A DNA stretch of 63,349 nt, counting the filler, from an uncultured bacterium (GTDB lineage: Bacteria > CAYSBA01): the NCBI GenBank assembly GCA_964429075.1. It is 22 parts of 22 records of this genome, joined end to end, with 100 filler letters (N's around TTAATTAATTAA, not from the genome) between each part and the next. Parts side by side here need not be neighbours in the genome. Positions count along the whole stretch, not along the records: positions 3,017 to 5,904 come from CAYSBA010000244.1; 21 more parts are not named here. One strand, written 5' to 3'. The position numbers and the translations under genes were made by a program. Numbering within the stretch: the first letter of the stretch is position 1; every line of letters begins with the position of its first letter. A model generated the notes under the pieces. That model saw nothing but the letters and a program-made list of their open reading frames with translations. It did not search any database and was not told where the DNA came from. This document shows, one piece after another, positions 3,017 through 5,904 of this stretch.

Positions 3017-5904
3017 TCTTTATCTCTGAGTATCCTGAAGGAAGGATCATTAAGATAATAACTCGGATCTTCTATTATAGATTTTGTGTTCTTATACTGG
3101 TTATATATAAATTTTGCCTTTGAAAAAATAAGCTTAAGCTCCTTGATCCTTGCTAAAAGATTTATGGTCCTCTCTGTTACTTCAAGCCCAAGTGATGTCA
3201 TCCCAACTAGTAGTTCCTTGATCCTTGCCCGGCTATTTATCACCTCATTATTCATCTGCATTTCCAACATCTTGGCTTGTTGCAGTGCCTGTAACCTCTG
3301 TTTTTCTGCCTCATACTCACCTATATCCTTTTCAAAGGTGTCATTATAAAAATCAAGTACAAAGACCTCTTGCGCAAACATAGATCCTGAGACGCCTGAT
3401 GAACTTATCTGGAAGGAATCCAGAAACTTACTGAGTGATGATAATATACCTCTCTTTTTCCTTAATTCTGCCTCTGCAATTTCAATAGCTGATAACTTCT
3501 CACCAGTCTCAATTGTAAATTCAATCATGTCTTGATAATTTTCTACAATTCTCTTTATCCTCTCTTGCTCTATCTTTATTAGTTCGTACTGCTCTTCTAT
3601 CTTTGCCTCTGCCTCCCTTACCTGAACCTCTGTTGCTTTTAATTCACTGTAAATCTCACCAACCCTGCCAGAACTGTAGGGTATCAATCTATTGCTTTCA
3701 CTATCATATTCAAGACCGCATAATTCTGGGACAATATCAATACAATCTTCAGGATCAATGCAAAATTGATCATCATCAATATGGGAGACCAAAAACTCTC
3801 CACAGAGTTCAGTTAACTCAGATAGATAGGTATTATTGATATCATTAAGTTGTGAAATCATCTCACTCTGATACTGTTCATAACTTCTGTCAGCATTTAC
3901 TGCATCAGAAAATGCCTGATTTAGAACTGCAATCTGATTCTGTGCAACCTCACCATGGTATTCTACAGGACTTTTTTTATTCTGACCGAGTGGTAGATAG
4001 TGAATCTCACTCTCCACCGGACTTATATCGCCATCATGTAGCTTTTTAAGATACTCAGCATCATGAAGTATCTCATCGAGAAAGCTATAAACATCAGATG
4101 AAATATATCTTGAGTCTTCAATATCCTCAAAAAATGCACCAATAAAAAGGATCTGCTGTATAAGTGATGCATACTTATTATACATCTCATCATCCATCTG
4201 GCCCCTATTCTGTCGTACCCCTATTTCAAGATCGCGTCTGTAAAATTGAGATAATTTCATTGCTGTATCAAAAAAGTGATATACAAAATCTTCATATATA
4301 GAGCCCCACCAGGATATAAGAAATAGGGTCTTTGGTGATAACATCTCAGCAAGTGCTTCCTCTATCTTTGGTATGTTCTGGTCCAATACACTCTTTTCTG
4401 CATCATAATCAAAATGGCCTATACTTACTAATTGACGCCGGATTTCAAGAAGATCCTGCTGGGTCACAAGCATTGTTGCCTTGAGTCGTGACATCTTTGA
4501 TCTTATATAAAGCTCAAAAGGATTTCTTGAAGACATATCAATATTCATCAAACCACCTTCTGCAAACCATTCAGCACAATCTAATGCAACGATGGAGACG
4601 CATGTATTACCATTTGAACTATTTGGATTTTCAAGGTCGTATCTACAACTATCGCTCAAAGACTCATAGTCTATCATAGCTGTGTTCGAATAATGGATTA
4701 ATCCAATTTTGTTGAGATCGCTATTTAACAATATATGGGCCGCACATTCAGATGCGTCCCAATTACTTACATATTCAAAACTGTTCAGGCAGGGATAGGC
4801 ACCACTATCTATTGCAAGCTGAGAACAAATAGGATCTGGGGCATTTTTGTCAAAAAGATATGTATAGATTGCCCCATCAGGTTCTGGAAACTGAGTTACC
4901 CCAAAATCTATTATCTGGTCAGATATAAATGAGAAGGTCACATCACCAAGGATATCAAAAGTATACCCTGCTGGCCCAACATAATTAATATCTATTGTTC
5001 CATTTAGTGTGCCACTTTTGTCTTTTAAATCCATTGTTACTGTGTAGAGTGTGCTGTATCCAGAATTAAGGTATTCAAAACTTCCAGAAGGTCCTGCCTG
5101 TGTAAAGTGAATTATCCCACTTATTTCATCCTTTTGTCCATCAAGTATTAGACCATCTTTAAAAAAGAGATTGTCTTTGTTTATTATGAGCCTGTAGATA
5201 CCCTGGTCATCTAAATCAAGAGTTGCTTTAAGAGGAAAACTGTAGCTACTCAGATTGCTAAAAAGTATCTTACCGCTGTAGGTACCGTACAAGGTCTTTC
5301 TAAGTGTGATAGGAATGGTAATGTCACCAAGATCTGTGTAGATCCTTACATAACTCCCACTATCCACAAGCTCCTGTGTTAGGTCCACACCATCCTGTAA
5401 TTCTATTACAAGCCTTACCGCAGCATCTGGTTCAATAATCCCATTTATAGGTGTTACAGAAATGCCATTGCCTGTCTCAACCCTAAAAGAAACAGATCTT
5501 TCGCACGAAGAGTTGTCTGTCCTGTCAATACAACTCAGCTCAACACTTGTGGTATCATTGGAATCATTTAATTCTAAATTCTCCGGGGTTACAACAATAT
5601 CACCTTCATAAGCTCCTTTATTTATTGGGTCCACATCATTATGACCCTCTAAGATACACCTTCCCCTTTTTGAACAGTATTTACCAGTCTCACAATCTGC
5701 ATCATTGTTACAATCGGCCACACATGTACCGAGTTTACAGTATGTACCGTAGGGGCAGTCTGATGAAATAAAACAAACATCTCCTGAATAACTGGAGTAA
5801 TCAGGGACGTCAAAATCGTTTGGGTTTCCACGATTGTTACCCTTATTATTGCTAACAATTGCATCTTTGCCTTTTGAACAACCTGTTGTAATAAATATTA
5901 GAAT
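3017..5904 (-). CDS. Large Cys-rich putative lipoprotein with C-terminal long coiled-coil hairpin (truncated at both ends)
   Basis: Frame open across the whole contig; upstream of the track start it reads ILIFITTG-C (lipobox-like), then CFISSDCPYGTYCKLGTCVADCNNDADCETGKYCSKRGRC, beta-rich domains and a long helical region. Confidence 0.8.

Follow-up and report, generated by a model that had tools for sequence, protein, structure and literature searches.

A family of predicted lipoproteins resembling the C-terminus of Tc toxin A subunits: a possible cell-tethered injection system

A protein fragment from an uncultured bacterium, here termed P0001, is on sequence grounds a collinear member of an unannotated family of predicted lipoproteins of ~1,230 aa. 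The family is very probably homologous to the C-terminus of TcA, the A subunit of Tc toxins. It is probable that its members form a cargo-injecting channel, and the preferred reading, held to be fairly likely, is that they are small lipid-tethered Tc toxin A subunits that inject a peptide from an RHS capsule into a neighbouring cell. The chances that the device is tethered and contact-dependent are about even. Possibly it is used against neighbouring microbes; predation, as proposed in a preliminary description of this DNA, is something we infer only. The interpretation given there is partly supported: support is strong at the level of the family and indirect for the fragment itself.

The window, that is, the whole stretch of 63,349 nucleotides that was analysed, consists of metagenome-assembled genome (MAG) contigs joined with N spacers, and its bases 3017–5904 are exactly contig CAYSBA010000244.1 (C244; 2,888 bp). 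Because contigs were concatenated, neighbours in the window are not neighbours in the genome, and they were discarded as gene context. The open frame of P0001 (3019..5904, minus strand) runs from 5904 to 3019, has 962 aa without a stop and is open at both ends, where the contig breaks; a single frame of more than 960 aa across the contig had been proposed and is confirmed. The motifs quoted in the preliminary description were all located in the sequence: ITTGC at 5878–5892, the first helix at 3559–3645, the second helix at 3262–3312 and NDPSFRILRD at 3022–3051. Positions 3082–5903 are covered by contigs of public run X1, which may be the source sample, with 0 substitutions and 0 indels. The complete gene is predicted from sequence to encode ~1,240 aa, with ~10–15 aa missing from P0001 at the start and ~270 aa at the end; the latter figure is based on the distance from a conserved DPxFR motif to the C-terminus of family members, 282 aa (measured in 44 of 70). 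A search of the genome assembly to which the window belongs did not recover the missing 3′ end.

That genome (G000) is 1.54 Mb in size, 70.8% complete, has a GC content of 39% and occurs in a hot-spring metagenome run. It encodes many Cys-rich lipoproteins. Three other parts of the window were recognised by eye: a PilC-like gene at 17800–18840; a contig fragment at 11894–13654 (minus strand) resembling a protein with phospholipase-D-nuclease and SNF2-type helicase parts, perhaps related to restriction or defence; and two adjoining predicted lipoproteins with beta-propeller-like repeats at 43818–46460 (minus strand).

The AlphaFold2 model of P0001 (77-row alignment, pLDDT 74.9, pTM 0.56) displays, in order, a disordered tether, two four-Cys repeats, an Ig-like domain, a barrel and a helical domain, and then a linker of low confidence that leads to a long hairpin. 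The Cys-rich repeats, Ig-like and beta domains and helical region that had been read from the sequence are borne out by the model. All features are on the minus strand. At the N-terminus (5878..5904), the hydrophobic end of a signal and a lipobox-like TTG-C (Cys9) form a predicted lipid anchor, as suggested by the sequence and the starts of relatives. The two four-Cys repeats after the tether (aa 44–83; 5656..5775) give E 0.005 with TIGR04201 Myxo_Cys_RPT, below its cut-off. The Ig-like domain (aa 97–204; 5293..5616) is of the PapD/MSP/ASH type (Z 11–12, rmsd 2–2.5) and gives E 3e-5 with Cep192_D6, also below the cut-off. An eight-stranded beta-barrel in the model (aa 205–328; 4921..5292), with Z ~10 to small barrels such as Cap15, possibly binds a ligand or receptor. 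The modelled helical domain (aa 358–623, ~265 aa; 4036..4833) is possibly a reduced shell; P0001 residues 358–952 show a weak ordered match to XptA2 1640–2279 (Z 10.7 but rmsd 36.7), and an Atlas search with the helical domain of a relative gave no usable match.

A linker-like segment follows (aa 624–652; 3949..4035), in the place of which the model has a low-confidence segment, aa 633–656. It spans ~26 aa in the family versus 44 in TcA, counted between motifs that match only roughly and whose equivalence comes from a non-significant profile alignment. The descending arm of the hairpin (3439..3948) is modelled as a helix (aa 653–701), a Cys-bounded insert (702–745) and a second helix (746–822); C701, G702 and C729 are conserved in the family alignment. 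The tip (aa 823–856; 3337..3438), of low confidence in the model, holds FQISSSGVSGSMF at exactly 3376–3414, and is followed by the ascending arm, a modelled helix of aa 857–945 (3070..3336). The contig ends with NDPSFRILRDK (3019..3069), the first residues of the part that, in a relative, matches TcdA1 in structure from residue 2246 onwards. Two long heptad helices had been described. The long helices are present in the model, but the label 'heptad' is unsupported because the 3.5–3.65-residue periodicity of both is no greater than that of shuffles (p 0.11 and 0.28).

P0001 retains only the last nine residues of its signal. The lipobox-like ITTG-C that had been noted is present at its start; it fits a relaxed lipobox and not a strict one, and the fragment does not reach back to a start codon. 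Assignment as a lipoprotein therefore rests on relatives. In 58 of 70 full-length relatives, a motif scan run without a shuffled control finds a signal-II-like start, a hydrophobic run closed by a Cys; by motif scan, 48 of the 70 have a relaxed lipobox and 23 a strict one. P0001 is accordingly predicted to be a lipoprotein, and the earlier claim to that effect holds as a prediction. To our knowledge, Tc toxins are soluble exotoxins without a lipid anchor and are released as soluble particles. The content of PMC7861908, as far as it extends to this point, is consistent with release in soluble form.

Relatives of P0001 number 204 at E 0.001 or better among 1.84 billion representatives, and many are 1,150–1,300 aa long; the median length of full-length members is 1,227 aa. 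A leave-one-out family profile matches the whole of P0001 at E 6.5e-96, its hairpin alone at 3.4e-43 and its N-terminal part at 2.4e-37, and reversed controls give no score with this profile. In a quick tree, P0001 falls within the small class as a long branch of odd composition, and its placement is unsure. Pfam has no family above its cut-off in 34 members. When 20 representatives were looked up, three carried a name, in each case 'hypothetical protein', and one came from a MAG of Myxococcales. Matches to the profile occur in 28 of 151 genomes sampled from one phylum, which we infer to be Myxococcota, and in none of 60 genomes drawn across bacteria. No family match was found on plasmids, and a metagenome locus scan with query protein P0003 yielded 0 loci. 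No description of the family was found by full-text literature searches, although subscription papers and supplements (e.g. the dbTC tables) could contain one; a giant-gene preprint (10.1101/2023.11.21.568195) is, in the part of it that bears on such genes, not relevant to the family.

A second subfamily (L050–L082) has proteins of 1,800–2,300 aa, many with lipobox-like starts, which have only the hairpin and funnel in common with the small class. It forms one well-supported branch in the quick tree, shows almost no Pfam matches and usually has its capsule gene upstream. One draft genome has three tandem paralogues of this large subfamily (G012:C231; L050, L051), and no capsule gene was found there; it is possible that the three form a hetero-oligomer. 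One family member (L091:12412–16337, minus strand) occupies two overlapping frames (658 and 721 aa) that divide immediately ahead of the linker; the gene may be naturally split, or a frameshift or a fault in the assembly may be responsible. The family gene often has genes for predicted Cys-rich lipoproteins beside it on its own strand (L046, L048, L088, L090, L091, L083), and their products are possible accessory or adhesion proteins.

The link to TcA comes from the structure of a complete relative, whose C-terminal 354 aa were modelled at pLDDT 92.9. Tc A subunits account for each of the best 20 matches listed by Foldseek for this C-terminus (E 1.5e-7 to 2.8e-4), with a large rmsd because the first helix is placed differently. 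In an unbiased search of 48,161 chains, Z is 8 or above in four only, all of them TcA; the best has Z 11.7 (rmsd 4.0, 217 residues aligned) and the next chain 7.2. Residues 73–338 of the model superpose on TcdA1 2246–2516 with Z 12.5 and rmsd 3.7 over 219 aligned residues, and the next non-Tc structure is at 6.3. The last 270 aa of the relative are thus predicted, from its model, to have a fold like the top of the TcA channel and the domain that binds TcB. Residue 73 of the relative corresponds to NDPSFRILRDK of the window, and therefore the contig stops where the TcA match starts. The fold match takes in only about the last 12 residues of P0001, and the link to TcA runs via relatives.

The fragment's own model behaves differently. 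SMC and chemoreceptor coiled coils rank first (Z 12.4–11.8), and TcdA1 is at rank 37 (E 2.9e-3). Of the TcA-like hairpin that had been proposed, kinship to TcA is supported at the family level, through the C-terminal fold of the relative; the window's own hairpin matches generic coiled coils equally well as TcA or better. The comparison with TcdA1 by AlphaFold and Foldseek divides in the same way: the C-terminus of the complete relative matches, and the P0001 model ranks generic coiled coils ahead of TcdA1. One further search result concerns P0001 itself, a score of 0.90 with an Atlas cluster in which 25% of members have PF18276.

At the sequence level, similarity between the family and TcA is not significant. 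Aligned with 40 TcA sequences by hhalign, the family gives a probability of 2.4% versus 1.1% for the reversed control, and profile tests with 120 TcA sequences reach 15.9 bits versus 17.1 for reversed TcA; the TcA set for both is narrow (Neff 2.8). The family profile touches the C-terminal region of XptA2 (2093–2274) at E ~1. PF18276 was detected in none of 36 family C-terminal regions and in none of five family-bearing genomes, where the control also gave no signal. Pfam and PDB searches with P0001 found nothing significant linking it to TcA, and word-based homologue searches with the C-terminal region returned 0 matches. These sequence results, and the match of the hairpin alone to generic coiled coils, would agree with a stalk or adhesin, in which a long helical hairpin only spaces or displays the RHS protein and does not penetrate a membrane. 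The polar tip of P0001 would suit such a role as well. This explanation is nevertheless very unlikely, given that hairpin and funnel succeed each other as they do in TcA, the funnel having the specific TcA fold, that the arms are of similar length (a hairpin span of 272 aa including a 21-aa insert, 34 rows measured, versus 227 in TcA), and that the family tip is hydrophobic and rich in small residues.

The tips were compared directly. In 77 family rows, the medians are 1.32 for the best 19-aa hydropathy, 0.40 for Gly/Ala/Ser and 0.14 for charged residues; the TcA medians, from the 42 of 120 TcAs that match all motifs, are 1.29, 0.44 and 0.10. Hydropathy is at least 1.0 in 68 of the 77. P0001 is an outlier (hydropathy 0.78, Gly/Ala/Ser 0.30, charged 0.28), with the fifth-least hydrophobic and second-most charged tip of the 77. 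The proposal of a small-residue tip followed by a TcB-binding domain has support from the family, whose tips are TcA-like; the tip of P0001 itself is polar. The fold of the binding domain is predicted in the relative, and in P0001 that part would come after the break in the contig.

Genes for capsule-like proteins (SpvB-propeller-RHS, a TcB-TcC fusion) are often found next to those of the family. In 43 fetched stretches, such a gene is near 20 of 44 family open reading frames, in all 20 on the same strand and in 19 within ~2.1 kb; the suggestion that relatives would have adjacent TcB/TcC/RHS genes is thereby borne out. In the window's size class, a capsule gene is near five of nine, and in two of the four others the sequence extends <1.7 kb downstream. 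The 24 of 44 without a capsule gene in the fetched stretch include many cut by contig ends or short flanks. SpvB, FG-GAP, TcdB_midN and RHS domains were found by Pfam in all five partners scanned, and the same five have signal-peptide-like starts as seen by eye. Capsule-like genes are so few per genome (one in G000, three in the 6.9-Mb genome G332) that the adjacency is judged to be far beyond chance, a judgement from counts in which related genomes are not independent.

Some family genes lack a capsule gene nearby or in the genome (L090, L091, G012 with its three tandem copies, and G043). They would be expected of a lipoprotein toxin that forms pores by itself and spreads by contact, by outer-membrane exchange or in vesicles; its funnel would be a relic and its capsule dispensable. 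Ion-permeable pores are formed by TcAs on their own (PMC6795518, in part). A stand-alone toxin is quite unlikely in view of the capsule genes, which in the two subfamilies and throughout the tree lie tightly adjacent on the same strand, and of the funnel region, which is the best-conserved part of the family. Four of the family-bearing genomes tested, one of them the single-contig G043, yielded no full capsule match, and this speaks against a pairing that is obligatory. Very long frames with FG-GAP-like stretches are present at G043:C1 ~2,460,000–2,461,700 (4,263 aa) and G012:C300 ~68,700–69,600 (3,832 aa). It is possible that these long frames are alternative partners in the two genomes, which are without a full capsule gene.

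The genome of the window has one capsule gene. It is on contig C69 (L084; frame 5893–32, minus strand), and encodes 1,954 aa with a signal-like start and the same four domains. Its product scores highest with capsules that lie next to family genes of this size class (E 1e-113 to 1e-130); with other capsules E is 4.6e-54 or weaker per stretch, many of those being cut by the fetched range. No contig bridging C244 and C69 was found in run X1, where both are at contig depths of ~4–13, a similarity that is no proof of linkage. The C-termini of the capsules differ from each other, as judged by eye, and 0 of 13 C-terminal regions matched toxin families.

The capsules of the small class (L084, L047, L048, L049, L083, L088) have two hydrophobic stretches split by basic residues just before the RHS core, at ~aa 1600–1650 in the C69 capsule. 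By eye, the second stretch ends in a lipobox-like Cys in six of six, and a strict hydropathy scan flagged the insertion in two only. This insertion raises another explanation, an export conduit in the envelope of the producer: a periplasm-spanning oligomer would take the peptide from a capsule tethered in the inner membrane through the cell's own outer membrane, with no puncture of a target. The insertion, unless cleaved, would anchor the small-class capsules in the inner membrane. Bacterial lipoproteins face the periplasm by default, and the polar tip of P0001 is also in keeping with a conduit. The conduit is unlikely all the same, as most family tips are as hydrophobic as those of TcA, 13 large-subfamily capsules are without the hydrophobic insertion and have a different, acidic one at that place, and the Cys-rich repeats and Ig domains appear to resemble surface proteins.

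The preferred reading, a tethered injection device, may be pictured as follows. The lipoprotein would be exported by Sec and then lipidated. Several copies would oligomerise via hairpin and funnel and bundle their hairpins into a channel, by analogy with TcA a pentamer. A co-exported, one-chain TcB-TcC-like RHS capsule would dock its propeller on the funnel predicted at the C-terminus. The Ig and barrel domains would serve as spacer or target-binding parts, and contact through them would trigger insertion of the hairpin tip into the neighbour's membrane, whereupon the variable C-terminal peptide of the capsule would pass through the channel. The target would be a microbial neighbour in contact-dependent killing. 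Perhaps the power stroke is shorter than that of TcA, or different, given a shorter linker and the lack of most of the shell.

Known Tc toxins are soluble, shell-driven syringes, mostly from insect pathogens. Surveys detect A subunits by three Pfam domains, none of which the family matches. If the reading is true, a half-size lipid-anchored homologue in 28 of 151 genomes brings the Tc mechanism to delivery from a cell-tethered device, probably between microbes. It then also gives an answer, open to test, to the question of how SpvB-RHS toxins with a signal peptide arrive at their targets, and is a fresh candidate for myxobacterial contact killing. The family also appears as a minimal version made by nature, with which the contributions of shell and linker to the injection stroke can be examined. 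More broadly, and with somewhat less than an even chance, Myxococcota and at least one other deep lineage may have an undescribed cell-tethered Tc-type system. It would consist of a near-shell-less lipid-anchored TcA homologue (~1,230 or 1,800–2,300 aa) and a Sec-exported TcB-TcC fusion, membrane-tethered in the small class via its internal hairpin and lipobox, and would be a contact weapon against microbes, as well as the translocase that many 'orphan' SpvB-RHS toxins with a signal peptide lack.

Among known systems, the family is closest in plan to the TcA subunits of Photorhabdus (TcdA1, TcdA4), Xenorhabdus (XptA1, XptA2) and Yersinia (TcaA-TcaB), and to YenA2. In common are the order of parts (a helical domain, a linker-like segment, a hairpin with a tip that in most of the family is hydrophobic and rich in small residues, helices and a beta funnel), as well as the C-terminal fold (Z 9.5–12.5 with the relative's model) and tcB/tcC-like neighbours. 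In the mechanism given in parts of PMC6795518, a shell surrounds the channel of the TcA pentamer, and the linker pushes this channel into the membrane; the propeller of TcB, docked on the TcA funnel, releases the cleaved TcC C-terminus. The TcA shell is large and alpha-helical, with a trefoil knot, and encloses the channel (PMC6795518, in part), whereas P0001 has only the ~265 aa helical domain, with its poor ordered match to XptA2. The family also differs in length (~1,230 aa versus ~2,300–2,500 aa for TcA), in its predicted lipoprotein signal, in having Cys repeats, an Ig domain and a barrel instead of VRP1, neuraminidase and RBD domains, in its shorter linker (~26 versus 44 aa) and in the Cys-bounded insert of its first arm. 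Identity to TcA is 12–18%, below detection by PF18276. A 'valid TcA', by a rule set out in a section of PMC7861375, has VRP1 (PF03538), neuraminidase (PF18413) and TcA_TcB_BD (PF18276) in this order, and none of the three was matched in P0001, 34 relatives and five further family proteins. As the three-domain rule fails and a lipid anchor is predicted, the family is not to be filed as canonical TcA; it is a variant of the Tc system. In a Tc survey (PMC7861908), the terms 'myxo', 'lipoprotein' and 'signal peptide' are absent from the main text.

The neighbouring capsules and the C69 capsule have the architecture of the 'TcdB/TcaC' polymorphic toxins, i.e. signal peptide, SpvB, integrin-like propeller, RHS and variable C-terminus (PMC3482391, in part). 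'TcdA' and 'TcaA' are absent from the first 300,000 of the 357,715 characters of that article, and no A-type partner is named in its relevant passages. Here, unlike that class, an A-type partner is encoded next door and the capsule has an internal hydrophobic, lipobox-like insertion. Bacterial teneurin-like proteins of the lipoprotein type occur in Myxococcota (PMC13018210, in part); such surface or lipoprotein toxin systems are common there, and the teneurin-like proteins, too, have a YD shell and Sec/SPII signals. No A-like protein is described in the relevant passages of that source. The myxobacterial Sit lipoprotein toxins (PMC5562445, in part) are likewise a lipoprotein toxin system common in Myxococcota. 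Both differ from the family in that no TcA-like channel is described for them in the corresponding parts of these sources, whereas here the lipoprotein is the predicted translocase and not the toxin shell.
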